Positions 9,848 through 33,225 are shown, numbered from the stretch's first letter. The stretch: 38,753 nt of DNA from Candidatus Amesbacteria bacterium GW2011_GWA1_47_20 (GCA_001002405.1 LCOA01000001.1:1-38753), one strand, 5' to 3'. Program-made: numbers and translations. The notes: generated from the letters alone by a model not told the origin.

Positions 9848-9858
9848 AAAGTAGATGT

Positions 9859-9887: not shown

Positions 9888-9895
9888 CTGCATTT

Positions 9896-10612: not shown

Positions 10613-12666
10613 GAGTCACCATTAGTAAGACGACGGCCTTTTGTATTGCGGTCATTTTGACCATATCAGTTGTTTCCCACTGGCAGTGGTTTTTTAAAAA
10701 CTCATATTTCGGTTGGGGTGACGCCAGGTTACTCACCAGATTTAAAGAGTCATGGATAAGTTATGCTAACTTTCCGAATATTTGGTCAATGTATGGAACG
10801 GGTCTGGGTGAAATCGACCTTATTTTCTCTCAATACCCGATTTACATGGTTTTTGGAGCGCTTACCCAATTGGGTTTTGACGCACGCCTAGTATCAAAAT
10901 TAATCTTCTTGGTTCCTGTCGCTCTCATTCCTGCATTAGGTAGTTATTTACTTATTAGAGATATAACAAGATCACACCTATCGAGCATAATTGGGTCAAT
11001 TATTTACTCGTTTAATGTTAATGCACTACTTACTCAGACCGGGAGCCTCTCAATTAGCGCTGCATACGCCCTGGCTCCCGTTTGCTTTTTAATGTTTATC
11101 AAGGCATTAGAGAAAAAAAGTATTAGACTAGGATTAGTAACTGGGTTAATTTTTTTTCTTCAATCAATTTATGAATTTAGAATTTTTTATGTTACCGCCT
11201 TTGTTCTATTTTTCTATCTAATATTCTACTTTGTTGTCAAAAAGGAGAACTATTCAAAAAATCTGATACGCACTCTCTATCATACTGCCTTGCCATTCAT
11301 ATTTCTAGCGTTCGCCACTTCGTATTGGCTCTTTCCCTATTTAATGACTGGATCAATTCAGACCAACCCTGCTTTCTCCAGACCTTTATTTGGAGACAAG
11401 TACGCATCTTTTAAACAATCGATAGCGTTTTTTTCACCTTGGTGGACTGCTGGCCATGGATACGCAAATGGAGTCGTGCAACCAATTCCTGTTTATTTTT
11501 GGACTATTCCCACATTGGCCCTTCTGGGCTTTATATTGAATACCAAGAGCCAAGAGGCGTATTTTTTCCTATTTATTAGTGTTCTGGGGATATTGCTTAC
11601 TAAACAATCAGACAGCCCATTCCCAAATTTATATCTCTGGCTGTTTCAACATTTCCCAGGTTTCAACGCTTTTAGAGAATCCAGTAAGTTTTTTTTAATT
11701 CTTTCGATCGGATATTCAGCATTAATAGCTTTTCTAGTTTCTTTTTTCAGATCGTATAAGATTATATCCTTGTTAATTGCAGCGGGGATTGGCGCGTTAT
11801 TTTTATGGAACATTAAACCTCTAATCACAGGTCAAATAGGCGGTTTATTTATCCCGAAAACTAGACCTCAAGACTTTATCGTTCTTAAGGACTTTCTTCA
11901 TGGTCAAAAGGATTTTTTCCGCACTGCTTGGATTCCAGCAGCAGGTATGTGGGGATATTATAGTGACATCCATCCTAAGATTGATCTTCACACGGTTTAC
12001 TTTGACATCCTAGGTCCAATGATGGCATCCTCACAAGGCCATGTGAGAGCTCCAAACAAAAGCTCGTTAATAGGAGATGTTAATCATCAATTTTTTGACC
12101 TTTTTGTTCAATCTAACTCCAATGAACTACTTGACTCTCTTAATATTAAATACGTTATTGTTCCCCTAGAGGACAAAGCCAATGACGACGATGTCTTTGT
12201 CAACTATGGCCTTCCAGATAGGGAGTATCTTCTTAACTTTTTGGATGGGGTCCCATATCTCTCACGCGTTAGTGCGGGAACCTCGGAAATTGTGGTCTAC
12301 GAAAATTCAAATTTTAAACCCCTGATTTTAATCGGGCCCTCCCCAGTACATTATCAGCGTTTATCGTCGTCAGAATACGTGATCCAGCTTCCCCCCACGG
12401 ATGAGGCTTCTCAATTAGTTTTCACAGACGCTTACCATCCAGCCTGGACGCTCACTGTAAATGACCAAAGCTACGTTTCAGAAAAATTCCAGCAACTATT
12501 TAATAGCTTTTCTCTTCCACCCCATGCTCAACCTGTCACTGCTCGCCTATTTTTCACTCCCCAAAAATACGTTGTCTATGGTTCTACAATTTCTCTTGCT
12601 AGCTTGTTAACTACTCTCTTAGTTCTCCTAATATTGTCAATTAGAGCCAGAGAGAGTAAAATTTAA
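10609..12666 (+). CDS. Large multi-pass GT-C-like membrane protein (AftD/YfhO-like architecture), paralog A
   Basis: WGD in the first loop, many membrane segments, PGFNAFRESSKF, external domain IKYVIVP...VYEN...FTDAYHPAW, and a final membrane helix. Start moved to 10609 (ATGA overlap). Confidence 0.7.
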   Translation: MRVTISKTTAFCIAVILTISVVSHWQWFFKNSYFGWGDARLLTRFKESWISYANFPNIWSMYGTGLGEIDLIFSQYPIYMVFGALTQLGFDARLVSKLIFLVPVALIPALGSYLLIRDITRSHLSSIIGSIIYSFNVNALLTQTGSLSISAAYALAPVCFLMFIKALEKKSIRLGLVTGLIFFLQSIYEFRIFYVTAFVLFFYLIFYFVVKKENYSKNLIRTLYHTALPFIFLAFATSYWLFPYLMTGSIQTNPAFSRPLFGDKYASFKQSIAFFSPWWTAGHGYANGVVQPIPVYFWTIPTLALLGFILNTKSQEAYFFLFISVLGILLTKQSDSPFPNLYLWLFQHFPGFNAFRESSKFFLILSIGYSALIAFLVSFFRSYKIISLLIAAGIGALFLWNIKPLITGQIGGLFIPKTRPQDFIVLKDFLHGQKDFFRTAWIPAAGMWGYYSDIHPKIDLHTVYFDILGPMMASSQGHVRAPNKSSLIGDVNHQFFDLFVQSNSNELLDSLNIKYVIVPLEDKANDDDVFVNYGLPDREYLLNFLDGVPYLSRVSAGTSEIVVYENSNFKPLILIGPSPVHYQRLSSSEYVIQLPPTDEASQLVFTDAYHPAWTLTVNDQSYVSEKFQQLFNSFSLPPHAQPVTARLFFTPQKYVVYGSTISLASLLTTLLVLLILSIRARESKI

Positions 12667-12670
12667 TCCA

Positions 12671-13228
12671 ATGACGGCTAATCAATTTGTGAAACCTACG
12701 TCTCTCCCCGGACTTTTTGTTCTCGAGCGGCCTACATTTACCGACAACCGAGGTTTTTTTCGTGAGGTTTTCCATCTTAATGAACTGGAGGACGTTCTCG
12801 GATATTCCTTCCATCCTGTCCAATGGAATCATTCTCGCTCACTTCCTAATGTCATCCGGGCCTTACATGCCGAGAACTGGAATAAATTGGTCTACCCAGT
12901 ATCTGGTGAAATTTTCATTGCCATTGTCGACATTCGTCCTGATTCTTCTACATTTAAAAAAAGCGAGACTTTTATAATTAACGATACCAATCGTAATGCT
13001 CTATTTATTTCCAAAGGACTTGCGAACTCGATTTGTGTCATCGGTAATACACCGGTTGATTACATTTATCTAGTCGACGCTTATTACGATGGAAAAGATA
13101 CTCGGGCTGTAGCTTGGAATGACCCAGACCTAGCTATCCCTTGGCCTATCAAGAACCCCACTATCTCCGATCGTGATCGCACCAATCCCCGTCTCCGAGA
13201 TCTTTCAACTGCGTCAAAAGAGGTATAA
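12671..13228 (+). CDS. rmlC: dTDP-4-dehydrorhamnose 3,5-epimerase family protein
   Basis: FTDNRGFFRE, VIRALHAE, VDIRPDSSTF, GLANS, WNDPDLAIPWP, ISDRD. Confidence 0.88.
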   Translation: MTANQFVKPTSLPGLFVLERPTFTDNRGFFREVFHLNELEDVLGYSFHPVQWNHSRSLPNVIRALHAENWNKLVYPVSGEIFIAIVDIRPDSSTFKKSETFIINDTNRNALFISKGLANSICVIGNTPVDYIYLVDAYYDGKDTRAVAWNDPDLAIPWPIKNPTISDRDRTNPRLRDLSTASKEV

Positions 13229-13229
13229 T
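13224..13229 (+). promoter_or_regulatory. Candidate internal -10 box
   Basis: TATAAT overlapping the rmlC stop codon, 8 nt before the ATG at 13238. Confidence 0.4.
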
Positions 13230-13237
13230 TCACGATT

Positions 13238-14134
13238 ATGGCGATTGAAAAAAGAATTCTTATTACAGGAAGCACAGGTTTGCTAGGAAAAGGGTTATTA
13301 GCAACTGCTCCCAGAAGTTTTAAAATTTTCCCCTCATATTCCAAGGATCTTCCTTTAGACAAAGAACGTCGTTATCACCGGATAGATATCACCAATATCC
13401 AGCAAGTTGCTGATAATTTTGCCAAAATCAAACCCGAGATAGTTATCCATGCCGCCTCAATTGGTAATGTTGATTACTGCGAAAAAAATCCCAAAGAGGC
13501 TGAAAAAGTAAACGTATTCGGTACCCAAAACGTCATTAGGGCATGTACAAAGCATAACTGCCAACTTATCTTTACCTCTTCTAATGCAGTTTTTAACGGT
13601 CTCAACGCCCCTTATTCCGAGACTGATCCTCCCAACCCTGTAAACTATTACGGACGAACCAAAGTAATCGGTGAGAGATCGGTCTTAAAGGCTAATCCCA
13701 AAAATGTTGTAGTGCGCATGACTTTAATGTATGGTTGGAATAACTCCAACCAACGCTCTAATGCCGTTACTTGGCTTCTAGATAGGCTTCGCCGGGCAGA
13801 GCCTACAAAGCTAGTTAACGATACTTACGTTAATCCCATCTACAATCTCCAGGCGGCGGAAAACATATGGAAAATAATTAAGCTCGGAAAAAGCGGAATT
13901 TTTCACCTAGCAGGTAGAGATCGAGTTAATCGCTATGAATTCGGTCTAATAACTGCCCGAATTTTCGGCTTTGACGACAGGCTATTAGAGCCCGTTTCAA
14001 GTGATTATTTTCCTGGTATAGCCCTTCGAATGCCAGATACAACCTTTGCTACTACAAAAATGATTGAGGGGTTGAGCAGTCGCCCCCTCTCCCTTCAAGC
14101 TGGTTTAGAGTTTATGCAACTGCAATCTCCGTGA
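13238..14134 (+). CDS. rmlD: dTDP-4-dehydrorhamnose reductase-like SDR
   Basis: ILITGSTGLLG, VDYCE, SSNAVFNG, PYSETD, PVNYYGRTK (YxxxK), GIFHLAG. Confidence 0.8.
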   Translation: MAIEKRILITGSTGLLGKGLLATAPRSFKIFPSYSKDLPLDKERRYHRIDITNIQQVADNFAKIKPEIVIHAASIGNVDYCEKNPKEAEKVNVFGTQNVIRACTKHNCQLIFTSSNAVFNGLNAPYSETDPPNPVNYYGRTKVIGERSVLKANPKNVVVRMTLMYGWNNSNQRSNAVTWLLDRLRRAEPTKLVNDTYVNPIYNLQAAENIWKIIKLGKSGIFHLAGRDRVNRYEFGLITARIFGFDDRLLEPVSSDYFPGIALRMPDTTFATTKMIEGLSSRPLSLQAGLEFMQLQSP

Positions 14135-15321
14135 AAGTCCTTTTTGCTCCCATACACTATTTCTACGGTAAAAATTACGGCAGCGAGATGATTTGTGCAG
14201 CAGACATCTTCACTCGCATCTCAAAATTTTTGCCAGGTACACAAGCTGTAGCTCTCACCAAGCTAGATGAACAACCAGACCTGCCCAGTTTGCACTATCG
14301 GTATTCTATCTCCAAGCCGTTCTTTCCCTCCATTTGGGACAATTTTAAACTCATATCCTTTTACACATTGGTTTCTCTCAGACTCATTACTCAACAGCAT
14401 TACACTATTGTCCATCACCTTTTTCCTTTTCGTATCGGTCGCACCTTCAACCCCTTATTTCTCATCCCGGGTCTGAAAATTAAGAAGATAATCGGGCCGG
14501 TTATGGTCTCCGTCGACTACGATAACAAAGATTTAAAAAAAAATTCCTTTTTTGCTACTAATGAAAATCCTGTATTTAATCTCCTGATTAATTTTTTTGA
14601 TCCTTTGTTTGCCCTTTTATCCAAAGCTACTCTATTGCGAGGGGATCATGTTATAGCTCTTAATGAAGTAGCCAAACAAGAACTTATTAAATTTGGAGTT
14701 CCATCCCCCAGAATCACCGTGATTCCCATCGGCATAGATACCCAAAAATTCAGTTTTACTCCATATAACAAGAAAAATAACCACATTTTCCACTTGTTAA
14801 CTCTAGGTTATCTTACTAAACGTAAGGGAACAGAACTATTGCTTAAGTCTCTGGTTAGAATCATTGAGAAATATCCCAAAGTTCACTTGACAATTATTGG
14901 CGATGGACCTCAAAAATCGGAGCTTGAAGACCTAGCCTGTCAATTAGATATTGACTCCCATGTTACCTTTGCCGGTTTTGTGAAATACGCTGATCTGGAA
15001 AAGTATTATCAAAGGTCACACGTTTTAGTAAGCATGAGTCGGGCAGAAAGTTGGGGTCAGGTTTATCTTGACGCAATGGCTTGTGGTTTAGCAATTATTA
15101 CCAGTAAAAACGATGGCTCAAATGAGATTATCAAAGATGGCCAGTTTGGCTACCTAGTTGAACAAGAAGATGTGGCTGGTCTAACAGGCAAGGTAAACTA
15201 TCTCATTTCACATCCCAAACTTGTCGACAGGTTTGGAAAAGCGGCTAGAAGAGAAATTAAAAGAAAGTATGATTGGGATAGAATCGTTATCTCTCAATAC
15301 CTTGGATTATATGAGCGCTAA
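14131..15321 (+). CDS. GT4 glycosyltransferase
   Basis: GIDTQKF, LGYLTKRKG, IIGDGP, SRAESWGQVYLDAMACG; GTGA overlap. Confidence 0.9.
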   Translation: MKVLFAPIHYFYGKNYGSEMICAADIFTRISKFLPGTQAVALTKLDEQPDLPSLHYRYSISKPFFPSIWDNFKLISFYTLVSLRLITQQHYTIVHHLFPFRIGRTFNPLFLIPGLKIKKIIGPVMVSVDYDNKDLKKNSFFATNENPVFNLLINFFDPLFALLSKATLLRGDHVIALNEVAKQELIKFGVPSPRITVIPIGIDTQKFSFTPYNKKNNHIFHLLTLGYLTKRKGTELLLKSLVRIIEKYPKVHLTIIGDGPQKSELEDLACQLDIDSHVTFAGFVKYADLEKYYQRSHVLVSMSRAESWGQVYLDAMACGLAIITSKNDGSNEIIKDGQFGYLVEQEDVAGLTGKVNYLISHPKLVDRFGKAARREIKRKYDWDRIVISQYLGLYER

Positions 15322-16168
15322 TACGATACACGAACTTTATCGAAAAACATCTGTCTTTTTAGATGCTTTGGTGCATAGGGAATATTTATATCTTATCTGG
15401 GGATTATCTCCGACTTTATTCAGAATTTTATGCCGTGTGACAGGATATAAAAACACCCAAATATACGCCATATATCAAAAGTTATATTATGAACACTTTG
15501 CCAGAATAGACGAGAAAAATTTGGTTGTGGGTCATTTTGAGGCGAATGAAAGCTATGACTATGAAAAATATTTGCTTAAACCCTTTTCTGAAAACACTAA
15601 ACACATCATAGCCCTCGATTTTGGTTGTGGACCTGGCAGAATGGTTCGCAGAATGAGTAAGTTTGTTAATCGAGTTGATGGTGTAGATATTTCTGAAAAC
15701 AACATTACAAAAGCAAAAATTTACACTAAAAATATTCGTTCCAAAACTAAGTACTTCGTCAATAATGGTTACGACTTAGCAGGTATTCCTTCGGACACAT
15801 ATGACTTAGTCTACACCACAATAGCACTTCATCATATACCTATCCACAAAACTCGTATGAATCTCATAAGAGAATTTCTTCGTGTTTTAAAGATCGGAGG
15901 ACAGATATCTTTGCAAATGGTTTTTCAGAAAAACCTTAAAAAATTACCTCCAGGGCACTCATTTTCCTGTTGGCGTGAGAATCCTTATGACGCCAATGGC
16001 ACAAACGGGACTTATGACGTAGTAATTACTCCAAAAAGTCTTAAACAAGTGAGAGAAGATTTAAGGTATGTTGGTTTTAAGAATATTTCGTTTAATCTTG
16101 CCCTTCCTCCTGTTTCCAAAGAAGTTGGTCTCTATGATAATTGGATATTTATATACGCCAGGAAGTGA
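15311..16168 (+). CDS. Class I SAM-dependent methyltransferase
   Basis: ALDFGCGPGR, GVDIS, YDLVY, LHHI, RVLKIGG. Start moved to the ATG at 15311. Confidence 0.88.
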   Translation: MSANTIHELYRKTSVFLDALVHREYLYLIWGLSPTLFRILCRVTGYKNTQIYAIYQKLYYEHFARIDEKNLVVGHFEANESYDYEKYLLKPFSENTKHIIALDFGCGPGRMVRRMSKFVNRVDGVDISENNITKAKIYTKNIRSKTKYFVNNGYDLAGIPSDTYDLVYTTIALHHIPIHKTRMNLIREFLRVLKIGGQISLQMVFQKNLKKLPPGHSFSCWRENPYDANGTNGTYDVVITPKSLKQVREDLRYVGFKNISFNLALPPVSKEVGLYDNWIFIYARK

Positions 16169-16175
16169 AACTACA

Positions 16176-16814
16176 TCAACGTTTCTTTAATGCTACACAC
16201 ACATAGTTTCCTCCATCAAAAACGGCAGGAAAAAGTTTAATTAATATTTTAGGGAATATTAACTTTGGAGAGAAAATGGGACTAAGTAGAAAATCGACAG
16301 AAAAGATACTTTTTACTTCAAACCCTTTTTGTATTAATAAATTTTTAAGGACAGATTTTGCAATGGGTTGCTTATGTGACGGCATAGAGAGGTATGCGAT
16401 TACACCCATTAAACAATCAACGTTTGGAGTTTTAATAATCACTACAGAACGCCCTGGTATCCTGTCTAATATTGTTTCCAAGCTCGAGATTTCCAGGTGT
16501 TCGATGAAATCTAGCATTAAATATATATCGAAGATATTTCTAGAAGTATTTATAAAATTCATCGCATCCCCTTTTATTGCTTTGCAACCATTCTTACGTG
16601 CGATTTCAATCAACTCGGAATTAGTATCTACACCCAATACTTCAAGCCCCCGCCTTCTTAAATACTCTCCAACCACTCCGTCCCCGCAGCCCATATCTAG
16701 AACTTTTCGTCCAGCACGGCAATATTTATCTAGATAGTTCAAATATTTCATTCTGCTTTGCCGCTCTTTCTGACTTTCTGCCACTACACCTATGTTTAAG
16801 TACTTGTTTTTCAT
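16176..16814 (-). CDS. Class I SAM-dependent methyltransferase
   Basis: VLDMGCGDG, GVDTN, DFIEHL, KTPN. Start moved to the ATG at 16814, 6 nt after a TATAAT. Confidence 0.88.
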   Translation of the reverse strand: MKNKYLNIGVVAESQKERQSRMKYLNYLDKYCRAGRKVLDMGCGDGVVGEYLRRRGLEVLGVDTNSELIEIARKNGCKAIKGDAMNFINTSRNIFDIYLMLDFIEHLEISSLETILDRIPGRSVVIIKTPNVDCLMGVIAYLSMPSHKQPIAKSVLKNLLIQKGFEVKSIFSVDFLLSPIFSPKLIFPKILIKLFPAVFDGGNYVCVALKKR

Positions 16815-16820
16815 AAGTAA

Positions 16821-16826
16821 ATTATA
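16821..16826 (-). promoter_or_regulatory. -10 box of a probably leaderless transcript
   Basis: Minus strand reads TGTG-TATAAT-TTACTT-ATG. Confidence 0.6.
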
Positions 16827-16871
16827 CACAACTATTGCCTATTCCCACATTGAGAGAGATAATCATTGATT

Positions 16872-17933
16872 ATGAATGCAGTGATCCATCGTGGCCCAAA
16901 TAACTATCAATACGTAACTGATTATCCTACACCAGTTGCTAAGAAGGGAGAAATACTTTTAAAGGTCCACACTTGTGGCTTTTGTGGAACAGATTACAAA
17001 ATTTTTACTAACGGCCATCGTGTAGTCAAACCGCCCCGCATTACAGGACACGAGATAATGGGATCTATCAGCGCAATTGGGTCTGGGACAAAAACTGACC
17101 TAAAAGTGGGGGATAGGGTTGTGGTTGTAACTACCGTAGGATGTACCATATGTGAATACTGTCAAGCTGGTCGAGCAAACATGTGTTACCAAGTAACCAA
17201 GGAGGGCCATTCTATTGGGTATTACACCGATGGAGGATTTGCTGAATATTGTCTGATCCCCCTGGAAGCAGTGTTGCAAAAGGTGCTAATAAAGATTCCA
17301 TCTCACGTTACAGATATTGAGGCAGCCGTTTGTGAGCCCTTATCTTGTGTGATCAATGGTCAAGATAAGCTAAATATTAGTCCCCGGGACACGGTTGTCA
17401 TTATTGGTTGTGGCCCAATTGGAAACTTGCACGCTCTTTTAGCCCAATCTAAAGGGGTGCGTAAGATTATTATGTTAGATTTACTTGAGTCGAAAATACA
17501 TCTTTCTCGTAAAGTTTTACCAAACGCCGTGTTTATTAATTCATCAAAAACTGATCCTAAATCAAAAATCTTCAAACTTACTAAAGGGAACGGGACAAGT
17601 GTGGTTATTGTAGCTGCACCCGATACCGCTGCTCAGCAATTATCAGTGGAAGTAGCCGCCATTTTGGGAAGGGTTTCATTTTTTGCTGGATTACCCAAAG
17701 GCACAGATGGGGGATATATCCCAACCAACCTTGTACATTACAATGAGTTAGAGATCTATGGATCTTACGCTTCTAACCGGAGTCAATTTATCGAGGCGTT
17801 GAAATTAATTTCCAACAGACGCATAAACTTAAAAGGCCTAATCACCCATACGCTCCTCCTAAAAGATATTTCCAAGGCGATTAAACTATTTCAAGCCGGT
17901 AAGACGCTCAAGACGGTGATTAGAATCTCATGA
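16872..17933 (+). CDS. Zn-dependent MDR polyol dehydrogenase (L-iditol/sorbitol dehydrogenase-like)
   Basis: CGFCGTD, GHE, structural-Zn cluster CTICEYCQAGRANMC, DGGFAEY, EPLSC, GCGPIG, ITHT. Confidence 0.9.
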   Translation: MNAVIHRGPNNYQYVTDYPTPVAKKGEILLKVHTCGFCGTDYKIFTNGHRVVKPPRITGHEIMGSISAIGSGTKTDLKVGDRVVVVTTVGCTICEYCQAGRANMCYQVTKEGHSIGYYTDGGFAEYCLIPLEAVLQKVLIKIPSHVTDIEAAVCEPLSCVINGQDKLNISPRDTVVIIGCGPIGNLHALLAQSKGVRKIIMLDLLESKIHLSRKVLPNAVFINSSKTDPKSKIFKLTKGNGTSVVIVAAPDTAAQQLSVEVAAILGRVSFFAGLPKGTDGGYIPTNLVHYNELEIYGSYASNRSQFIEALKLISNRRINLKGLITHTLLLKDISKAIKLFQAGKTLKTVIRIS

Positions 17934-18964
17934 TGCAAAATAATCCCTTCAAGAAAAACACTGCTTATTATCTAACGGAGCCGTTCGTCTTCAGAAAAAG
18001 AGTTGAACCCTTCCACCTTGGTTCCAAAGGACAAGCCGTCCTTAAAACGCTTAAATCCGCTATTTGTGGGTCAGACCTTCAGTACTATTTGGGACAGAAA
18101 GCCAAAGAAAAACTTAAACAGCGTTTACCTGTTATTCCACTTCATGAAGGGGTGTGTCTTAATCTGGCGACAGGAAAAAGGGTTGTTCCCGTTGCTGGGG
18201 ATCTTACCCAAGTTCCTAAGGAATTTAAAGGTCGCGAGAACATATATCCCGGACTTCCTTATATGGGTTCGACAGCTGACGGACTAGCCAGGCACTATTT
18301 AACGTATCCTAAAGAACTGTTAGTTTCTGTTCCAGACAATGTCGGTGATGATTTGGCTTGTTTAGTTGAGCCTCTGTCAATAATTTTCCACTCACTTAAT
18401 ACTGTAATCCCTCAGCACTATCATCGAATAGCCATCGTCGGAGACGGAACAATGAGTTACCTTCTTGCCATGGTGCTCCATAGTTATTATCAACTTCCTA
18501 AACCCCTTCTAACTGTGTACGGAATATGGGACAGTAAATTAGCTAAATTTTCCGAGTTTGCTAACACGATTAACACAGATACCCAAGACGTTGAAGGCCA
18601 AGCAGATATTATATTTGAGGCGGTTGGCGGACCTGAAATGCAACGGACGCTAGATGTGTGCTTAAAGCTTTGCGCTCCTGGATCGCTTATTGGAATTATC
18701 GGTATAAGTGATTCCCGTCCGTCATTAGCTGTAAGTAAACTGGTTAACTGGGGGGTCACAATTAAAGGGCTAACTCGCTCAACATATTTCGACTACAAAC
18801 AGAGCCTAACATATATGGCGGATTACAAGATGCAAAAGTATCTGCAAAAGTTCATCCACCCACGTCAGTTTACTATCAATTCTGCAACAGATCTCAAGGA
18901 AGCATTTGACTTTGCTGTTGAGACCCATGCTCCGGGTCGAATTTTAATTTCGTTTCCCGTGTGA
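17930..18964 (+). CDS. tarJ: Ribulose-5-phosphate reductase / ribitol-5-phosphate dehydrogenase-like MDR
   Basis: AICGSDLQYYLG...LPVIPLHEG, no structural-Zn cysteines, GDG..SY, KLAKFS, FEAVGG, GISD, GLTRS, FTINSATDLKEAF; collinear with Firmicute TarJ as recalled. Substrate unproven. Confidence 0.72.
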   Translation: MMQNNPFKKNTAYYLTEPFVFRKRVEPFHLGSKGQAVLKTLKSAICGSDLQYYLGQKAKEKLKQRLPVIPLHEGVCLNLATGKRVVPVAGDLTQVPKEFKGRENIYPGLPYMGSTADGLARHYLTYPKELLVSVPDNVGDDLACLVEPLSIIFHSLNTVIPQHYHRIAIVGDGTMSYLLAMVLHSYYQLPKPLLTVYGIWDSKLAKFSEFANTINTDTQDVEGQADIIFEAVGGPEMQRTLDVCLKLCAPGSLIGIIGISDSRPSLAVSKLVNWGVTIKGLTRSTYFDYKQSLTYMADYKMQKYLQKFIHPRQFTINSATDLKEAFDFAVETHAPGRILISFPV

Positions 18965-18965
18965 G

Positions 18966-19706
18966 ATGAAAATATTTGCGCATCGCGGAGTCTTCGACAA
19001 ATATTCGGAAAACAGCCTGGCAGCCTTGAAATCCGCCCTAAATTCGCACTTTTCTGTTGAAACCGACCTGCGTCTAACTGTTGATAATGATTTTGCGATT
19101 ATCCACGAAGACAATCTTCAGCGGCTATTTCGAAAGGATGTTCCTGTATCTTCCCAATCCCTTTCTCAGCTTTTAAAAGTTGGTCTCGCTTCGTTTCGAC
19201 AGTATTGTCAACTGTTAAAGAACTACCCCCAGGAGCTTTTTACCGCCGTCCATCTTAAAGCTGATAGTCAAACTCATACTGGATTGGAGTTAGTGTCTCA
19301 ATATTTCACTCAATATAATTTATTTAATCGGGCTTTTGTATTTGATCTGACTATCGAGGCTGCACGTTATCTTCGCAAGATAAATCCCAAAGTTCAAATT
19401 GCCTTCATCATTTCCGAGGAAAAATTCGAACCCACTGTCTATCTTTGGGACGAAGTTAGAGATTTAGATTTTGATATTGTCTGGGCCGCTGAGATTCGTA
19501 ATTTGTACAGTCAAAAATTTATTAATACGGTCAAAAGAACAGGCAGAACCTTTTATGCTGTGTCCCCCGATATTCACAGGGCTCCCGAGATATTGCACCC
19601 CAGAGCGTACGCCGGCTACGATTTTACCTGGAAAGAATTAATCGCCTGGTGTGTGGACGGAATTTGTACAGATTTTCCTTATATGCTAAAAAGGCAACTG
19701 AAATGA
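18966..19706 (+). CDS. Glycerophosphodiester phosphodiesterase (GDPD)-family protein, no signal peptide
   Basis: IFAHRG, ENSL, VETDLRLT.D, IIHED, VDGICTDFP. Confidence 0.88.
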   Translation: MKIFAHRGVFDKYSENSLAALKSALNSHFSVETDLRLTVDNDFAIIHEDNLQRLFRKDVPVSSQSLSQLLKVGLASFRQYCQLLKNYPQELFTAVHLKADSQTHTGLELVSQYFTQYNLFNRAFVFDLTIEAARYLRKINPKVQIAFIISEEKFEPTVYLWDEVRDLDFDIVWAAEIRNLYSQKFINTVKRTGRTFYAVSPDIHRAPEILHPRAYAGYDFTWKELIAWCVDGICTDFPYMLKRQLK

Positions 19707-20431
19707 GAACTATTATTCCTCTTGCTGGGAAAGACGCTAGATTTGAGAAGCTTGGTATCTACAAGCCGCTTATTATGCTTGGAGACAAACCTTTAATCTA
19801 TAGAGTAGTCGCAAGTAATAAATTCCCATTGGAAAAGTTATATTTTGTCGTATTGTTTGAACATGAACATAAATATAACGTCTCTAGGAAACTGAAGAAA
19901 TTCTTTGGAAATTCTACTACTGTTGCAGTCATAGATAAAGTCTGCGAGGGAGCGCCTAATAGTATTCTGGAAGCCAAAGAGATTGTGAGTACCAACGAAG
20001 GAATATTAATCGATCTAGGGGATATCATCAGGGAGCTACCTAATATGGCGATAGACATCTCGTCCCACCGCTATTCAGGAATAATCCCTATAGACAGAAA
20101 TCACGTGAGTAACGTTTGGGGGTACGTGGTTATGAGTGAAGGTGCTGTTGTCCAGCTTAAAGAAAAATCCCTAGAGAAAATAAAAGGAGGAGCCACTATG
20201 GGATTATATTATTTTTCGTCTGGTAACGAATTTATCAGGTATACGACGGAAATGATCTCCCAGAATAAAAGAGTGGAGTATACACACATGTTTTATGTAG
20301 GGCCAGTGTATAATCAATACTTGGCTGCGAAGAAAGATATCGGCGTGTCTCATTCCAAAATTATCCACACTCTTGGCAGTCCAGAGGAAATTAGTTCTTA
20401 TATTGACCACCTAGAGAAAACACCAAAATGA
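19703..20431 (+). CDS. Sugar-phosphate nucleotidyltransferase (BcbE-like), divergent paralog
   Basis: IIPLAGKDARF, YKPLI, WGYV, KEK, MGLYYF, FYVGPVYN, LGSPEE. Start moved to 19703 (ATGA overlap). Confidence 0.8.
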   Translation: MRTIIPLAGKDARFEKLGIYKPLIMLGDKPLIYRVVASNKFPLEKLYFVVLFEHEHKYNVSRKLKKFFGNSTTVAVIDKVCEGAPNSILEAKEIVSTNEGILIDLGDIIRELPNMAIDISSHRYSGIIPIDRNHVSNVWGYVVMSEGAVVQLKEKSLEKIKGGATMGLYYFSSGNEFIRYTTEMISQNKRVEYTHMFYVGPVYNQYLAAKKDIGVSHSKIIHTLGSPEEISSYIDHLEKTPK

Positions 20432-21162
20432 AAATCGTTATTCCCATGGCAGGCAAAGGATCGAGGTTTGCTGATGCTGGTTTTGACGTTCCCAAACCTT
20501 TGATTTCCGTGGCTGGTAAACCCATGTTCCACTGGCCAGTGGAGTCTGTAAAAAAAATGATCCCTATTCAGGATAAGGATTTTATCTTCATCCTGCGAGA
20601 AGAACATGTTAGGGATTATGCTATAGACAAAGCAGTCTCTCAGTATCTCCCAGAGAGCACGATTATTGTTGGCAACGATTTTCATGGAGCGGCTCAAACT
20701 GTTTACTTGGCCAAAAACTACATGGACCCTGAGGAAGAACTGTTGCAGACAGATTGCGACCAATATTTCATCTGTTCCCAATTTGCCGTAGCTAGAAAAC
20801 GCGCAGTCTCGGAAGGATTAGGTGGCATTATACCAGTCAAAGATTCTGATAACTCGGGTTATTCGTACGTGGAACTGGATGAGCAAAATTTTGTTAAGCG
20901 CACCGCCGAGAAAGAGCAAATCTCTCGGCACGCGGCGATAGGTGTTTATTACTTCACTAAAAGCAAATACTTTCTTAACGCAATTTCTCAAATGATGGAT
21001 CAACACTTAACGATTCGAGGAGAATATTATATGTGCCCTGTATACAACTTTGTAATTCCACAAGCCAAACCAGTTCTCATAGAGGCAGATATCTGGATGA
21101 CAATGGGGACTCCAGAAGAAAAAACAAAGTTCGAAAAATATATATCATCAAGAAAAAAGTAG
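20428..21162 (+). CDS. Sugar-phosphate nucleotidyltransferase (BcbE-like)
   Basis: VIPMAGKGSRF, PKPLI, GAAQT, DCD, YSYV, AEKEQIS, IGVYYF, GEYYMCPVYN, MGTPEE. Confidence 0.88.
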   Translation: MKIVIPMAGKGSRFADAGFDVPKPLISVAGKPMFHWPVESVKKMIPIQDKDFIFILREEHVRDYAIDKAVSQYLPESTIIVGNDFHGAAQTVYLAKNYMDPEEELLQTDCDQYFICSQFAVARKRAVSEGLGGIIPVKDSDNSGYSYVELDEQNFVKRTAEKEQISRHAAIGVYYFTKSKYFLNAISQMMDQHLTIRGEYYMCPVYNFVIPQAKPVLIEADIWMTMGTPEEKTKFEKYISSRKK

Positions 21163-21168
21163 TTAACC

Positions 21169-22467
21169 ATGCTAGACGTTTCCTCATCACCCAATATTAA
21201 ACGTGCTAAACATTGGTCAAGTGAATTAAACCAGCTCTACCGCCCCACTGCTAAATTTACCCCCGAGTCTTTTGATATCGTCTACTCAGGGGATAACTTG
21301 AATACCACAAGATTTACCCCAGTTCTTCTTAAAGAATGGTTTAATTTAGTGGCAAAAGATGGCTATCTTTTTGTTGATTACAGGCCTAATTCTTTTTGCG
21401 ACTTTCAGACCCTAGAAGAAAATATGCTTTGGCTGTGGAAGGATAAATACGAAATAATCTATCACGGACTTTTGTACAGAAACGAAGCCCGAAATCTTAC
21501 CCCCACAAAACTAGTCGGCTTTCTTGATAAACAAAAGAATTACTATAAAATAAACTTAGATCCTATTACGCTTCTGCCACCATTGGCCCCAACGATAGAA
21601 ACTCCCGTATCTGATTCTGATTCCATCCGATTCGTTTGTCGAAAGACCCAGTCAACTTGCATTCCAGGGGACGAGATATCTAAGTGGACATTCGGAATTA
21701 TCACTGATGGCAAAAGGAGAGACTGGATGGAAGAAATAATCGCATCCATTAGAGCCCAGCGCATCCCTCAATACGAAATTATCGTTTGCGGTACATACTA
21801 TGATCGAGAAGAACCTGACTTTATCTATATTCCATTTAATCAACGACGAGATAAAAAATGGATTACCAGACAAAAAAACCTGATCTGTGAGAGAGCCAAG
21901 TATGAAAACATCTGCATCTTACATAACCGCCTAGTATTGGATAAAAACTGGTATTCAGGTATGAAAAAATGGGGCAACTGTTTTGAAGTTCTAAATGTTA
22001 AGCAAATCCAACAAAACACTGGTCTTCTGGGCAACCATTGGGAGTACAATTACTTTCTGCTATACAAAAAAAAGTCACGTTTTTTCAATAAAATTATCCT
22101 CCAATTTACAGCCACTTTAGATCCCCGAGATTGGTACGAAAGCATCGTCATGTACGGTCAGTCTATTGTATGCAAAAAACACATTTATCTAGAACACAAA
22201 CAAAACGAGGCTCTATACTGGGATTGGGCAGAAGATCACTCCTTCTCGTTCGAACTGATAAACGCCGGATACATAATGCGTCACAACCCATATAGTTTAA
22301 TGTACAATTTAGACAGTAAAAACTGGTGTAACAACGTTAGGGTTGTTTATTCGCCAGTTTTAAAAATTACTCGGTTTATTGGCCCCAGAGCTAAGCTCGC
22401 ATATCGTTGGCTAATCATCACTCTCCTCCGAATACTCAAACCATATCAACTTCTTACTGATTTATGA
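21169..22467 (+). CDS. Two-domain protein: partial methyltransferase-like N-terminus plus GT-A/GT2-like C-terminus
   Basis: N-terminal ESFDIVYS...LLKEWFNLVAKDGYLFV; C-terminal WTFGIIT, SIRAQ..PQYEIIV, KNLICERAKYENICILH, NE.LYW..AED. Confidence 0.65.
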   Translation: MLDVSSSPNIKRAKHWSSELNQLYRPTAKFTPESFDIVYSGDNLNTTRFTPVLLKEWFNLVAKDGYLFVDYRPNSFCDFQTLEENMLWLWKDKYEIIYHGLLYRNEARNLTPTKLVGFLDKQKNYYKINLDPITLLPPLAPTIETPVSDSDSIRFVCRKTQSTCIPGDEISKWTFGIITDGKRRDWMEEIIASIRAQRIPQYEIIVCGTYYDREEPDFIYIPFNQRRDKKWITRQKNLICERAKYENICILHNRLVLDKNWYSGMKKWGNCFEVLNVKQIQQNTGLLGNHWEYNYFLLYKKKSRFFNKIILQFTATLDPRDWYESIVMYGQSIVCKKHIYLEHKQNEALYWDWAEDHSFSFELINAGYIMRHNPYSLMYNLDSKNWCNNVRVVYSPVLKITRFIGPRAKLAYRWLIITLLRILKPYQLLTDL

Positions 22468-24560
22468 TTGAAAAGCACCGCCATTTACTTACTATTGTTG
22501 TTCTGCTTCTCGTAACCGTCGTTGGTTACTATCCCTGGTTTATTGGTCACTCTGTCTTGACATATGGTGATTGGTGGTTTGCATATCCAGAAGGCCTTAA
22601 AGAGTATTTCAGCTTACCCCAAGCGTGGATATCAAATACTACTCTTGGGGTGGTCAATCTAAGTCTCACCTTCGCACCAAAGATTTTCTTCAATGGTCTA
22701 CTGGCCAACTTTGGCGTTTCTCCCCAACTAAATAATCAACTAACGTACCTCTGGCCCATAATTATATTCTCAACCCTCGGGTTCTTCTGGTTAGGCAGAA
22801 AGGTCATGGGCACTAATTTGGCCGGCTTCTTTTCAGCAATATTTTATAACTTCAACGTTGTCACAATTGCCATAAGAAGCGGTCATCTCACTCTCGCCTC
22901 AGCTCAGGCAGTTGCTCCGTTCTTAATTTTGCTCGTCCTTAAGACACATGAAACTAAAAAGCTGCGTTTTGCTTTACTCTCCGGGATTTTGGCATATATC
23001 GTTAGTTTCAACGAGATTCGAGTATTTTATCTTCTTGCGGGAATTCTCGGCTTAATCTCTCTCTACCACTCATTAATTCTGGAGAAATCGTTCCGAGCTT
23101 TCGTTGTCAACTCACTTCTGACATCAGTAATCCTTTTCATATCTGCTTCATTGAACATATATTGGATATTACCCTTTGTTTTCACTACTCCAGAACCATC
23201 CAGCGGTTTTGATTTTTTGGGACGACAGCTATTTGGCTCACAGAATTACAACCTGCTTAATTCATTGACCTCATGGAACATTTGGTGGACAGGTGGTCGC
23301 CAATCTTCATCAGTTCAACCTATCCCGGCCTATTTTTGGACCATCCCTGTCTTAGCCATGATCGGACTTGTTCTCAATCGACAAAAAAAGTACTCCCTTC
23401 TTTTTGGAATAATCGCTATTATTGGACTTTTTTTTAGCAAACAGTCAGCTCCTCCATTTACTCGAGTGTATGCGTGGTTGTACTATCATCTTCCAGGCTT
23501 TAACGCCTTCCGCGAAGCCAGTAAATTTTATTTTTATATTCATTTAGGTTTTTCAGTATTTATTGGAGGATTAGTTAGCTTAATCTGGTCAGTTAGTCAA
23601 CGACTCAAAAGACATCGCCTTTCTAGTCTCTTGATAATTATGTCAATATTTATCCTTTTTACTTATAATGCTCGGCCCATCGTCACTAAAGAGATAGAGG
23701 CCATTTTTGTCCCTCGGACTATCCCGCTAGAGTACCTTACACTCAAGGAGTTTATCAACTCACAGCCAGAATACTTTAAGACTCTTTCCATACCGACCCA
23801 CTCTCGCTGGCAGCTGTTTACTTCCCTCCATCCAAATTTCAGCTACATTGAGGCATTGAATTCTCAATGGGACTATTTAGTTACGCGTTTTCGTCAGGAG
23901 CGCACTCGTCATACTGAGCAGGATGTCATTTTTAGTACTTTCGATTATCGATTTAGGGGACTGCTTACACTCTCTTCCATCAAGTATGTTATCGTTCCTC
24001 TTCAAGACCTTGTTAACGACGATGACTTCTTTGCTTATTATGGCGACCGTCGGTTATATCTTGACAAACTTAATAGCTTAAGCTTTCTAAAAAAAACCAA
24101 CGTGAATGTTAATGATATCGCGGTTTACGAAAATCCGGATTTCAGACCCAAATTCTATCTATCTGACCAACTTGAGAAACTAGAAAATTTTAGAGAATCA
24201 CATGTAATTCCCGTCTCTTACCTCCGCCTGAGTAGCACACATTACCAATTAACCTTACCCAAACGGGATCAGCCAACCTATCTTAATTTTACTGAAAGAT
24301 TCCATCCCGACTGGAGATTAAAGCCGGATGACTTTAACTGGTTGCTCTCACTGATCTGGCCATCATATTTCCTGTCCGACTCGTACCATTCCGCCAACGG
24401 GGCTAGGTTAAACTCATATTATCTTCCCCCCGGAAGTTCCCAGACCCTTCATCTTTATTTTAAACCTCAAGCATATGTAAATCTCGGATTGATTATCTCT
24501 TCGGTTAGTTTTTTTACAATAGTTGTACTAATAATATATGACCTCAAAAGAAATCTCTAA
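22464..24560 (+). CDS. Large multi-pass GT-C-like membrane protein, paralog B
   Basis: YGD in the first loop; shares VQPIPxYFWTIP, PGFNAFRExSKF, IKYVIVPLxD..NDDD, VYEN and FT...HP.W with 10609-12666. Confidence 0.7.
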   Translation: MIEKHRHLLTIVVLLLVTVVGYYPWFIGHSVLTYGDWWFAYPEGLKEYFSLPQAWISNTTLGVVNLSLTFAPKIFFNGLLANFGVSPQLNNQLTYLWPIIIFSTLGFFWLGRKVMGTNLAGFFSAIFYNFNVVTIAIRSGHLTLASAQAVAPFLILLVLKTHETKKLRFALLSGILAYIVSFNEIRVFYLLAGILGLISLYHSLILEKSFRAFVVNSLLTSVILFISASLNIYWILPFVFTTPEPSSGFDFLGRQLFGSQNYNLLNSLTSWNIWWTGGRQSSSVQPIPAYFWTIPVLAMIGLVLNRQKKYSLLFGIIAIIGLFFSKQSAPPFTRVYAWLYYHLPGFNAFREASKFYFYIHLGFSVFIGGLVSLIWSVSQRLKRHRLSSLLIIMSIFILFTYNARPIVTKEIEAIFVPRTIPLEYLTLKEFINSQPEYFKTLSIPTHSRWQLFTSLHPNFSYIEALNSQWDYLVTRFRQERTRHTEQDVIFSTFDYRFRGLLTLSSIKYVIVPLQDLVNDDDFFAYYGDRRLYLDKLNSLSFLKKTNVNVNDIAVYENPDFRPKFYLSDQLEKLENFRESHVIPVSYLRLSSTHYQLTLPKRDQPTYLNFTERFHPDWRLKPDDFNWLLSLIWPSYFLSDSYHSANGARLNSYYLPPGSSQTLHLYFKPQAYVNLGLIISSVSFFTIVVLIIYDLKRNL

Positions 24561-25359
24561 ACCTCTAGTTTCAACAATCATCTCTACTAAAAACGAGGGT
24601 TTCAACTTGACTCGTTTGATAACCTCAATAAAATCTCAAACATACCCCAATATCGAGATTGTCGTTGTCGACAATCATTCTTCTGACAAGACAGTCAATA
24701 TTGCTCGTAAGTTCGGAGCTAGGGTTTACATCCGTGGGCCCGAGCGCAGTGCACAAAGAAATTATGGCGTAATTAAATCTCAAGGTAAATACGTTTTGAT
24801 TTTGGACGCTGACATGGAATTGACCCCCAATGTAATTGCTCAATGTGTAAAACTTGGTGAAAGCGGCCTTGGTGGAATGATTATTCCCGAAAAATCAGTA
24901 GGAGAGGGCTTTTGGGCTGCAGTCAAATCAGAGGAAAGAAGCTGGTACCTGGGAGATGACTCAATTGAGGCCGAAAGATTTTTCAATAAAGCTATTCTTT
25001 TAGCCGCTGGAGGGTACGATGAGTCTATTACTGGTCCTGAGGACTGGGACTTACCTCTCAGGACTAGAAAACTTGCGCCCCACGGACGAATTAAGAGTTT
25101 TATCATTCATCACGAAGGCAGACAATACTTTTGGAAAATGGTGAAAAAGAAGTATTACTATGGTCTAAGCTTAGCCAACTACGTGAGAAAAAACGATCGT
25201 CACATTTTCTCCTCCCAGCAAATTTACTTTTTACGCCCCAGCGTTATCGGACATACTTACAGGATATTTTTTAACCCCATAGTATATATTGGAGTCTGGA
25301 TCTTATTTTTCGCTCAGACTCTAGCGGGCGTACTGGGTTACTTACGTGGAAAGACATGA
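24538..25359 (+). CDS. GT2 glycosyltransferase
   Basis: VSTIISTKNE, VDNHSSDKT, ERSAQRNYG, ILDADM, GGYDE...PEDWDL. Confidence 0.92.
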   Translation: MTSKEISKPLVSTIISTKNEGFNLTRLITSIKSQTYPNIEIVVVDNHSSDKTVNIARKFGARVYIRGPERSAQRNYGVIKSQGKYVLILDADMELTPNVIAQCVKLGESGLGGMIIPEKSVGEGFWAAVKSEERSWYLGDDSIEAERFFNKAILLAAGGYDESITGPEDWDLPLRTRKLAPHGRIKSFIIHHEGRQYFWKMVKKKYYYGLSLANYVRKNDRHIFSSQQIYFLRPSVIGHTYRIFFNPIVYIGVWILFFAQTLAGVLGYLRGKT

Positions 25360-26066
25360 TTCTCACATCCTTTTTCGGGTCCTTATATCAACGAGCATAC
25401 GCCTTAAACACTGCTAACATCGTCTCCGCTCTGAAATCTACTGGCCCTCACTCTCGGCTCTTGGATGTAGGTTGCTGGGATGGTGCTCAGACTCGTGTAT
25501 GGCATCAGATCGCAGGTGCGAACAAAACTTTCGGTATTGAACCAGTTGCCTCTGCAGCCAAGCAAGCAGCCAGATTGGGCATTCGCACTGCACGTATTTC
25601 AGCTGATCGAAATCGTTGGCCATATAAAAGTGATTTTTTCGACTGCATAGTCTCAAATCAAGTGATTGAGCATCTTTCTCATCTTGACCATTTTCTATCT
25701 GAAGCTTCCCGCGTTCTCAAACCAGGTGGAATTTTGATTACTAGTACTAACAACCTTAGTAGTTGGCATAACATATTCGCGCTGATATTAGGCTGGGCTC
25801 CGTTCGACCTGGCAAATAGTTCCATTCGCATCTTGGGTTTAGGCAATCCCTGGTCAATTCATTACGGGAAGTCCGATATTCGTGGGTCCAGCTGGACACA
25901 CAAATGCGTGTACACCTCTCATTGGCTTAGGGTCTGGCTAGATCTCTATGGTCTCGAAACAATCAAAATTATGGGCGCAGGGTATTATCCCCTCCCGGCC
26001 ACAATTGGAAAGTGGTTTCCTCTTCATAGCGCTTTTATCACTTTAATTTCTCAAAAAAAGCAATAA
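25356..26066 (+). CDS. Class I SAM-dependent methyltransferase
   Basis: LLDVGCWDG, FDCIVSNQVIEHL, RVLKPGG, STNNL. Confidence 0.9.
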   Translation: MILTSFFGSLYQRAYALNTANIVSALKSTGPHSRLLDVGCWDGAQTRVWHQIAGANKTFGIEPVASAAKQAARLGIRTARISADRNRWPYKSDFFDCIVSNQVIEHLSHLDHFLSEASRVLKPGGILITSTNNLSSWHNIFALILGWAPFDLANSSIRILGLGNPWSIHYGKSDIRGSSWTHKCVYTSHWLRVWLDLYGLETIKIMGAGYYPLPATIGKWFPLHSAFITLISQKKQ

Positions 26067-26068
26067 GT

Positions 26069-26758
26069 ATGTATTATTCAGGATCTCGTCGGGGCAATCT
26101 TTATCCTCAAGTTTTCCCCCCTTTGATTGGCCGACTTAAGTACTCAACTAGTTTGCTCGATCCTAATGGTAAGTCTGTCCTGGTGATTGGCGATTCATAT
26201 GGCTGGTACGCCAAATTTGCTTTGGAGTGTGGTGCCAAATTTGTTCATAGTCTTGACATAGCCGCACCTTCCCCTATGCTATCTCGATTATTCAAATCCT
26301 ATTCCCAATATCATCACACAATAGAATCAATTTTAGACTTCAGAAGCACTAAGAAATATGACTTAGCTGTCTTTTTTGAAGTCATAGAACATTTACCTCC
26401 CCAAACAGAAAAATTCGCCTTGCAAGTTATCGCGAAATCGCTGAAATCAAACGGTAAGCTTCTCTTATCAACACCAGTTAAATCACTTCTATCTTATTTT
26501 TCAGATCCGGCGATCTTCCTTGGGCATCGCCATTATTCTCCAAAGCAACTTACTCAACTACTCAACGCCGCTGGTTTTTATCAGATTGACTACACTCGCG
26601 GTGGCTTTGTCTACAGCGCTCTTGATCTACTCTGTCTCTATTTTGTAAAATGGATTTTGCGTCAACCATATCTTTATTTTTCTCCATTTGTAGATAAAGT
26701 TAATTTCGAATATCCCCACCCTCACGGAACTACTCTTTTTGCCATATGTGCAAAGTAA
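26069..26758 (+). CDS. Class I SAM-dependent methyltransferase with atypical motif I
   Basis: VLVIGDSYG, YDL..FEVIEHLP, LKSNG, STP, GHRHYS. Confidence 0.8.
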   Translation: MYYSGSRRGNLYPQVFPPLIGRLKYSTSLLDPNGKSVLVIGDSYGWYAKFALECGAKFVHSLDIAAPSPMLSRLFKSYSQYHHTIESILDFRSTKKYDLAVFFEVIEHLPPQTEKFALQVIAKSLKSNGKLLLSTPVKSLLSYFSDPAIFLGHRHYSPKQLTQLLNAAGFYQIDYTRGGFVYSALDLLCLYFVKWILRQPYLYFSPFVDKVNFEYPHPHGTTLFAICAK

Positions 26759-33202: not shown

Positions 33203-33212
33203 AATAGGAACA

Positions 33213-33218: not shown

Positions 33219-33225
33219 CATCCAT

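Follow-up and report, generated by a model that had tools for sequence, protein, structure and literature searches.

A conserved cassette of dehydrogenases, a phosphodiesterase and nucleotidyltransferase-fold proteins in a glycan locus of Candidatus Amesbacteria bacterium GW2011_GWA1_47_20, with a possible role in supplying a nucleotide-activated polyol or ketose

Nucleotide-activated alditol and unusual-sugar routes define the building material of bacterial surfaces. The known routes rely either on an IspD-type cytidylyltransferase together with a reductase, or on a kinase and a phosphatase that act ahead of the transferase. Here, we describe a cassette of five genes at positions 16872-21162 of a 38,753-nucleotide stretch of DNA (hereafter, the window) from Candidatus Amesbacteria bacterium GW2011_GWA1_47_20 (GCA_001002405.1, LCOA01000001.1). 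The genes encode two medium-chain dehydrogenases/reductases (MDR1 and MDR2), a glycerophosphodiester phosphodiesterase family protein (GDPD) and two proteins of the nucleotidyltransferase fold (NT1 and NT2). Its pairing of an altered nucleotidyltransferase with a phosphodiesterase, two proteins that certain organisms carry as a fusion, suggests that the chemistry is solved in another way.

Several described systems share features with this cassette. The TarI/TarJ (Bcs1) pathway to cytidine diphosphate (CDP)-ribitol resembles it in that MDR2 is TarJ-related, a nucleotidyltransferase lies downstream in the operon and the genes belong to a glycan locus. However, the cassette has no IspD/TarI and the genome has no TagF/LicD match, MDR2 is dispensable in related cassettes, and further members are present, namely another MDR, a GDPD and, besides the canonical NT, an atypical one. 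In the pathways to CDP-6-D-glucitol and to CDP-D-mannitol (C. jejuni HS5.18/HS5.17 and pneumococcal Mnp1/Mnp2), as described in the available part of the source, a ketose phosphate is nucleotidylated and then reduced to a nucleoside diphosphate (NDP)-alditol for the capsule by a PF01128 cytidylyltransferase and a PF01370 short-chain dehydrogenase/reductase (SDR) (PMC10918830). Two related cassettes, on metagenome contigs L086 and L087, likewise adjoin a gene whose product would supply fructose 6-phosphate, whereas in the window cassette the NTs are of the PF00483 type, the dehydrogenases are MDRs and a GDPD is present in addition; neither PF01128 nor PF01370 was found among its five genes. The phage route to NDP-arabinofuranose, so far as the accessible text of PMC13326640 sets it out, leads from ribulose 5-phosphate through an arabinose-5-phosphate isomerase, a kinase, a HAD phosphatase and a nucleotidyltransferase. 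There, as proposed for the cassette, the phosphate must be shifted to a position open to activation by a short NT, and relatives of NT1 and NT2 elsewhere are fused to RpiB or HAD domains (and also to SnoaL). In the phage route as described in that text, a kinase places and a phosphatase removes phosphate, whereas the cassette has neither enzyme and carries the NT1/GDPD pair. Finally, BcbE and BcbG are necessary if the type B capsule of P. multocida is to have its fructose branch, the donor being unnamed in the available part of the report (PMC13552107), and HS1.08 of C. jejuni HS:1 is said, in the parts of the sources at hand, to be necessary for fructose activation and transfer (PMC11924219, PMC7901785). 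Unlike the cassette, which was compared with it by description and not by sequence, the BcbE/BcbG system, in which genes of the capsule locus are required for a ketofuranose side chain, comes with no mention of a GDPD or an MDR in that part of PMC13552107.

The cassette is real and conserved, and its recurrence elsewhere supports the view that the five genes are a functional unit. An earlier note, made from the window sequence alone, had described five tightly linked genes with three ATGA overlaps and one 1-nt gap, and both the coordinates and the junctions were confirmed. Read from the sequence, ATGA overlaps join MDR1 to MDR2 (17930-17933), GDPD to NT1 (19703-19706) and NT1 to NT2 (20428-20431), and a gap of 1 nt lies between the end of MDR2 (18964) and the start of GDPD (18966). 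While this observation held, the interpretation that the earlier note attached to it, a new pathway to an activated ketose or pentitol donor, is partly supported by the results below.

All five genes were found together in another small genome, G621, on one strand and at 37-47% identity, in the order MDR1-MDR2-NT1-GDPD-NT2; compared with the window, NT1 and GDPD are swapped. L086 and L087 (GC content 0.50 and 0.47) carry MDR1, NT1, GDPD and NT2 at 38-48% identity. MDR2 was not found in either contig at 1e-6, and a bifunctional phosphoglucose/phosphomannose isomerase (PGI/PMI) gene precedes MDR1 in both. Since these contigs keep four genes and PGI/PMI replaces the TarJ-like reductase, the conserved core consists of MDR1, NT1, GDPD and NT2. 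The sequences thus indicate a conserved and horizontally scattered four-gene cassette, in which MDR2 would be a lineage-specific feeder, one of several. The co-occurrence that the earlier note proposed to check therefore extends to all five genes in one genome and to four in the two contigs. Its argument that the proposed pathway uses every gene of the set is weakened, as the TarJ-like MDR2 stands outside the core, and a scheme requiring both dehydrogenases cannot be general because L086 and L087 lack MDR2. The order NT1-(x)-GDPD-NT2 is seen in three of the four loci.

The genes between and around the core differ among these loci. L086 has a NUDIX gene with an intact box and, between NT1 and GDPD, a 2H phosphoesterase gene with both HxT motifs. 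In L087, a Cof-type HAD replaces the 2H phosphoesterase, and a PF01370-type SDR gene overlaps the end of NT2. The L087 gene at the position of the L086 NUDIX was tested as a candidate NUDIX and is not one.

MDR2 was detected in one of 401 genomes of a phylum sample (G000 only) and in two of 401 genomes of a class sample (G000 and G621), and in none of three genomes of the same genus or 26 of the same family. The GDPD profile matched the same two class-sample genomes, as well as one of 28 genomes of the order and three of 401 of the phylum sample, two of the latter being distant. When a genome collection was scanned with the MDR2 alignment, the 80 loci listed were all at most 31% identical, and among the 80 loci listed by a metagenome scan with the GDPD alignment, L085, L086 and L087 were close relatives and the other 77 were generic GDPDs. 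No relatives were detected in viral contigs searched with the GDPD alignment and with the fusion protein P0217. Six contig sizes (283521, 172088, 3228, 6500, 4112 and 14506) are common to the MDR2 and GDPD match lists, which points to further co-occurrence of the two genes, and for several long GDPD-bearing contigs no contig of equal size appears among the listed MDR2 matches. At the DNA level, three genomes of the same genus (G472, G504 and G611) share with window positions 9000-28900 only matches of 50-116 bp or none, and the locus is therefore accessory and differs between species of the genus.

Table. Genes of the cassette and the gene that follows it, with positions counted from the first nucleotide of the window.
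Feature	Position	Strand	Description
MDR1	16872-17933	+	Zn-dependent medium-chain dehydrogenase, polyol/threonine-dehydrogenase type; core member
MDR2	17930-18964	+	TarJ-like reductase, predicted ribulose-5-phosphate reductase type; putative feeder, not kept in all versions
GDPD	18966-19706	+	Cytoplasmic phosphodiesterase, small private subfamily; core member
NT1	19703-20431	+	D-type nucleotidyltransferase-fold protein, loop AGKDARF; core member
NT2	20428-21162	+	Canonical short sugar-phosphate nucleotidyltransferase, loop AGKGSRF; core member
432-aa gene 3' of NT2	21169-22467	+	Methyltransferase-like N-part and GT2-like C-part

The two nucleotidyltransferase-fold proteins are of different kinds. 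NT2 matches PF00483 with 50.6 bits (cut-off 21.2) and the solved structure 4evw at 1.1e-12, and its loop and its catalytic Lys, Asp and Glu-Lys all align, which makes it canonical; its orthologs in G621, L086 and L087 are 42-44% identical. NT1 has no Pfam match at E≤1e-3 and matches NCBIfam Arch_glmU at 2.9e-11, and its structure model (pLDDT 94.1; TM 0.79 to 4evw and 0.73-0.77 to RmlA) shows the nucleotidyltransferase fold. The alignment of NT1 lacks the GxGxR phosphate loop, the orthologs of the window protein reading AGKNPQF, AGKDPRY and AGKDPKF. The pattern AGK[D/N]xx[F/Y] is present in all four orthologs, with the second glycine lost and the arginine not conserved, whereas all NT2 orthologs have AG[KR]G.RF. 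The orthologs of both proteins alike retain K21, D107 and E154-K155. The earlier note had called both genes BcbE-like nucleotidyltransferases; the assignment as nucleotidyltransferases stands for NT2 and, as to fold, for NT1, but to speak of two ordinary nucleotidyltransferases is inaccurate because NT1 is without the canonical GxGxR loop.

The same division runs through the wider family, for which a HMMER search returned 1749 matches at E≤1e-3 and merely 7 at E≤1e-30. Of the 150 best representatives, 23 carry the D-type loop alone and 105 the G-type loop alone, the other 22 having both loops or a different one. Five of the 150 (P0215, P0217, P0224, P0226 and P0255) are NT-GDPD fusions, and all five are D-type, with the NT domain N-terminal and the GDPD domain C-terminal; the former is 30-35% identical to NT1 and the latter 24-34% identical to the window GDPD. 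Two of them carry the JGI name 'glycerophosphoryl diester phosphodiesterase/dTDP-glucose pyrophosphorylase', and other NT relatives bear automatic names such as 'capsular biosynthesis protein'. In a quick maximum-likelihood tree (IQ-TREE), the cassette NT1s form one clade (SH-aLRT 99) and the NT2s another (SH-aLRT 100), a canonical clade of 80 rows (SH-aLRT 98) contains no D-type row, and the NT-GDPD fusions fall in two further D-type clades; the Asp of the NT1 loop is thus shared by D-type clades that are separate from one another. Six library proteins of about 500 aa (P0220, P0222, P0232, P0234, P0240 and P0259) are tandem NT-NT fusions, in which the loop of the N-domain is degenerate (e.g., LAGRSSFF, ISSTSRFF) and that of the C-domain is canonical (AGRGxRF). 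Fusions to DHBP synthase were seen among Atlas neighbours only and are leads only.

The phosphodiesterase matches PF03009 with 59.4 bits (cut-off 23.6). It has no hydrophobic N-terminus, signal or membrane segment, and its catalytic HR is already at residues 6-7, which makes it cytoplasmic, as the earlier note had proposed. Its model (pLDDT 96.3) is a TIM-barrel with TM 0.7-0.8 to solved GDPDs, at 12-20% sequence identity. The catalytic set H6, R7, E32, D34 and H47 is invariant, and this His/Arg/Glu/Asp/His set, like the fold, is shared with GlpQ and UgpQ; unlike those enzymes, the window protein belongs to a private subfamily that stands beside or is fused to a D-type NT. The subfamily is closed, comprising 22 relatives at 36-63% identity, after which the next GDPD drops to 26%. 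A secreted or housekeeping enzyme was ruled out by the N-terminus without a signal and by this private subfamily. GDPD enzymes are known as glycerophosphodiester hydrolases, and the GlpQ of H. influenzae frees choline for the Lic1 cytidylyltransferase pathway to lipooligosaccharide, a precedent for a GDPD that feeds glycan decoration. For the window protein, a natural substrate other than glycerophosphodiesters is suggested by its membership of a private subfamily and by the fusions to NT domains. Three features, namely the Asp kept in the NT1 loop, the fusion proteins and the private nature of the GDPD, together speak for NT1 and GDPD operating as a pair, and for an NT1 that is functional but without ordinary NTP chemistry. 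The fusion proteins also give independent support to the idea, put forward before on the window alone, that one of the transferases works with the phosphodiesterase.

Taken together, we tentatively favor, at somewhat less than an even chance, a reading in which an NT1-GDPD-NT2 relay turns a ketose phosphate into the NDP-activated form of a polyol or ketose, to serve as donor for the glycan of the locus; its substrates, step order and chemistry are what we infer from the gene set. A feeder would supply a ketose or alditol phosphate, this feeder being MDR2 here and PGI/PMI elsewhere. In the window, the input may be D-ribulose 5-phosphate, which MDR2 would reduce to ribitol 5-phosphate, and MDR1 would adjust the oxidation state of the MDR2 product. 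NT1 and GDPD would then act as one unit, in which NT1 produces either an NDP ester or a phosphodiester linked to a nucleotide, and cleavage or transesterification of this product by GDPD leaves a new phosphomonoester on the sugar or polyol. NT2 would make the final NDP-activated donor for downstream transferases, and the whole relay would do without a kinase or an IspD-type cytidylyltransferase. Two sub-variants can be formulated. In the first, NT1 would nucleotidylate a hydroxyl and GDPD would free the nucleoside, amounting to a kinase-free phosphorylation; in the second, NT1 would make an NDP ester that GDPD cyclises, as the earlier note had imagined, and the 2H enzyme of L086 would be compatible with such a step. 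The gene order (three of four loci) and the domain order of the fusions (five of five) fit this sequence of steps and do not prove it.

A number of points speak against such a relay. Gene order and fusion indicate coupling and not the order of reactions, and the loci whose gene context was inspected are four in all. Since the accessory genes between core genes vary (NUDIX and 2H in L086, HAD in L087, none in the window), no single fixed pathway is evident. The altered loop of NT1 could mean a non-catalytic or regulatory subunit; in the wider family, there are NT-NT tandem fusions whose N-domain is degenerate. GDPD may also have a plain role in hydrolysis or recycling. In addition, distant GDPD relatives in G348 and G399 have no detectable NT1, and hhalign comparison of the NT1 profile with the uncharacterized neighbours of these distant GDPDs revealed no relation.

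MDR1 (Pfam ADH_N 6.3e-26, ADH_zinc_N 3.8e-15) is 47-48% identical to its orthologs in G621, L086 and L087, and the four orthologs share without exception the zinc ligands of both the catalytic (C38/H60/E61/E155) and the structural (C91/C94/C97/C105) site. Because its beta-2 strand ends with an acidic residue, MDR1 is probably NAD-linked. Its earlier description as iditol-dehydrogenase-like proved too specific, as threonine, sorbitol, xylitol and ketose dehydrogenases match about equally. The scores include threonine dehydrogenase at 9.7e-50, ketose reductase at 2.8e-41, galactitol-1-phosphate dehydrogenase at 1.3e-35 and iditol dehydrogenase at 2.7e-31, with sorbitol and xylitol dehydrogenases scoring about like the threonine and ketose enzymes. 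All NCBIfam matches are far under cut-off, and 31 solved chains are found at E≤1e-30 without an outlier. A specific iditol dehydrogenase was accordingly ruled out, several dehydrogenase classes scoring alike and no solved relative being prominent. For MDR2, the MDR Pfam matches are weak and under cut-off; it has the MDR fold, and the zinc ligands C46, H72 and E73 are invariant across 22 family members. The closest solved relative of the single sequence is TarJ (6xh9, 1.1e-21), and the profile of the 22-member family matches S. aureus TarJ (6xh9) over its full length at 2.4e-53 and 184 bits, the next chain scoring only 5.1e-24. The TarJ-like character that had been read from the window is thereby borne out, and MDR2 is specifically TarJ-like and predicted to be of the ribulose-5-phosphate reductase type.

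A specifically TarJ-like MDR2 beside a canonical NT2 is also what would be expected of the main rival to the relay, a TarI-independent NDP-alditol route, which we regard as rather unlikely. In this route, MDR2 would reduce ribulose 5-phosphate, NT2 would make NDP-ribitol, NT1 would be a silent or regulatory partner of NT2 and GDPD would only break down a side product, or else provide or recycle a polyol phosphate, while MDR1 may feed a second alditol phosphate. The lost second glycine and unconserved arginine of NT1 would suit a silent subunit, for which the joining of degenerate and canonical NT domains in the tandem fusions offers a parallel, and the SDR (PF01370) overlapping NT2 in L087 resembles the CDP-glucitol and CDP-mannitol pairs, as these are described in the available part of PMC10918830. 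However, the Asp of the NT1 loop is kept across separate D-type clades, which argues for function and not decay. In five representatives, the NT1-type domain is fused to GDPD and not to an NT2-type domain, and the GDPD belongs to a private subfamily that goes with the cassette. Moreover, MDR2 is missing in two of the four loci, and the genome has no detected TagF/LicD alditol-phosphate transferase to use such a donor.

This last result, together with the lack of a tarI partner, was obtained for the whole genome, of which the window is an entire contig (C1). The genome comprises 692,671 bp in 37 contigs and is rated 91.8% complete, and the host of this very small (0.69-Mb) genome probably belongs to the Candidate Phyla Radiation. 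Profile searches confirmed that neither TarI/IspD nor TagF/LicD is encoded in the window, as had been stated before. In the genome, PF01128 matches NT2 alone with 19.3 bits (below the cut-off of 27), and TagF (PF04464) and LicD (PF04991) have no matches, although the missing 8% or so could hold them; a tarI gene and a ribitol-phosphate transferase elsewhere in the genome, whose presence the earlier note had named as evidence against its proposal, were thus not found. The genome carries a ribulose-phosphate 3-epimerase, so that ribulose 5-phosphate is available, RpiB was not found in it, and an RmlA-like gene is located on another contig.

The lack of TagF/LicD in a genome of this completeness would also fit a quite improbable alternative, in which GDPD together with NT1 as a donor-binding module is itself a polyol-phosphate transferase that replaces TagF/LicD and transfers the polyol phosphate from an NDP-polyol supplied by NT2 to a sugar acceptor, nucleoside monophosphate leaving. 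The existence of NT1-GDPD fusions and the intact catalytic residues of GDPD are consistent with this, as is the retention by NT1 of the sugar-phosphate-binding E154-K155 and K21 and not of the NTP loop. Nevertheless, both proteins are soluble and have no membrane segment, and the phosphoesterases (2H and HAD) between NT1 and GDPD in L086 and L087 suit small-molecule intermediates better. To our knowledge, no GDPD-fold enzyme has a synthetic transferase role, which also counts against this alternative.

The genes around the cassette and its distant relatives (PGI/PMI, GatZ/KbaZ-like proteins, PMI-type cupins, transaldolase/FSA and a split transketolase), together with the fusion partners, appear from their sequences to share a ketose/pentulose-phosphate theme. 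This theme is in keeping with the full scheme of the earlier note, which we consider very doubtful. There, MDR2 would convert ribulose 5-phosphate to ribitol 5-phosphate, MDR1 would oxidize this to L-ribulose 1-phosphate, NT1 would form an NDP-1-ketose, GDPD would form and open a 1,2-cyclic phosphate to give a ketofuranose 2-phosphate, and NT2 would produce an NDP-ketofuranose. The NT1-GDPD coupling agrees with such a scheme. MDR1 looks NAD-linked, which suits an oxidation, and adjoins the TarJ-like reductase, and the 2H phosphoesterase gene between NT1 and GDPD in L086 fits a cyclic-phosphate intermediate without demonstrating one. A donor for fructofuranose branches is, besides, left unnamed in the available parts of PMC13552107 and PMC11924219. 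On the other hand, the absence of MDR2 from two of the four loci means that a two-dehydrogenase carbonyl walk is not general, and NT1 lacks the NTP loop of ordinary sugar-phosphate nucleotidyltransferases. A more general form, in which the kinase-free NT1-GDPD-NT2 relay uses nucleotidylation and then cleavage of a phosphodiester to install the phosphate on, or move it to, the anomeric hydroxyl of a ketofuranose, perhaps through a cyclic phosphate, and thereby leads to an NDP-ketofuranose, is in our opinion unlikely. If true, it would provide a kind of donor so far undefined for the fructofuranose-type branches of bacterial capsules.

The setting of the five genes favors a biosynthetic role. 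They form the 5' start of a glycan operon of 16 tightly packed co-directional ORFs that extends through 32521, and a gap of 6 nt separates NT2 from the gene at 21169. A promoter and terminator scan of 15500-33500 gave the same numbers as shuffled sequences (48 vs 46.3 and 12 vs 14.1). In G621, the cassette is flanked by GT2 genes, with sugar-nucleotide-modifying genes in the same 20-kb glycan locus, and sugar-nucleotide-modifying genes and methyltransferases surround the cassettes of L086 and L087. We therefore consider it highly improbable that the genes are a catabolic or salvage cassette for glycerophosphodiesters and polyols merely located in a glycan locus, even though catabolism is the classic setting of the GDPD and polyol dehydrogenase families and organisms with very small genomes rely on salvage. 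Besides these surroundings and the translational overlap of the cassette genes with the glycan operon, two nucleotidyltransferase-fold genes would be out of place in catabolism, and the cassette includes neither a transporter nor a kinase.

In a literature search, no paper that places a GDPD together with nucleotidyltransferases in glycan synthesis appeared among the search results. No description of the gene combination, the D-type NT clade or its GDPD fusion was found, whereas the component families and the purpose as a glycan precursor supply are already known. The cassette also hints at what an entire clade of 'NDP-sugar pyrophosphorylase-like' proteins may do. In addition, that a 0.69-Mb genome devotes a whole 38.7-kb contig to a presumably heavily methylated glycan bears on the host-facing presentation of episymbiont-like bacteria.

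The 432-aa protein encoded directly downstream of NT2 is a candidate user of the cassette product. It has no Pfam or NCBIfam match. The Atlas structure neighbours of its residues ~170-430 are GT2 enzymes (TM 0.43-0.48), which is a lead only, and several of the Atlas neighbour clusters are viral. No tblastn match to this gene was obtained in L084, L086 or L087, and it is thus not kept beside the cassette elsewhere.

Around the GDPD subfamily, further genes were observed in other genomes. In G399 (L173, 1030-9148), the gene immediately after a distant GDPD is NT2-like; those for an AAA_28 P-loop protein and a transaldolase/FSA come next, and a nonulosonic-acid set (CMP-sugar synthetase-like, PseB-like, NeuC-like and NeuB) lies further on. 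A second module near the subfamily, composed of a GatZ/KbaZ-like protein, a PMI-type cupin and an NTP_transf_3 protein of 530-550 aa, was noted in L087 (13006-17003), L174 of G348 (4339-7748) and L086 (14099-15274), the GatZ/KbaZ-like proteins of L086 and G348 being 54% identical.

The contig as a whole (1-38753) represents 5.6% of the genome and is nearly all devoted to glycan biosynthesis. It contains 10 ORFs with S-adenosylmethionine-dependent methyltransferase domains as well as six GT2 and six GT4/GT1 genes, and this methyltransferase-rich gene content suggests a heavily methylated glycan. Also present are an O-carbamoyltransferase gene (5295-7118), RmlC and RmlD genes (12671-14134) and a Wzx-like flippase gene (34539-35804). 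Two polytopic membrane paralogs of ~700 aa (10510-12666 and 22464-24560; 32% identity, E 2e-111) have ~8-10 hydrophobic segments, their sole family lead being a weak MmpA-like NCBIfam match. At the start of the contig, upstream of the glycan genes, lies a gene for an AAA_14/DUF4143 ATPase (188-1453).

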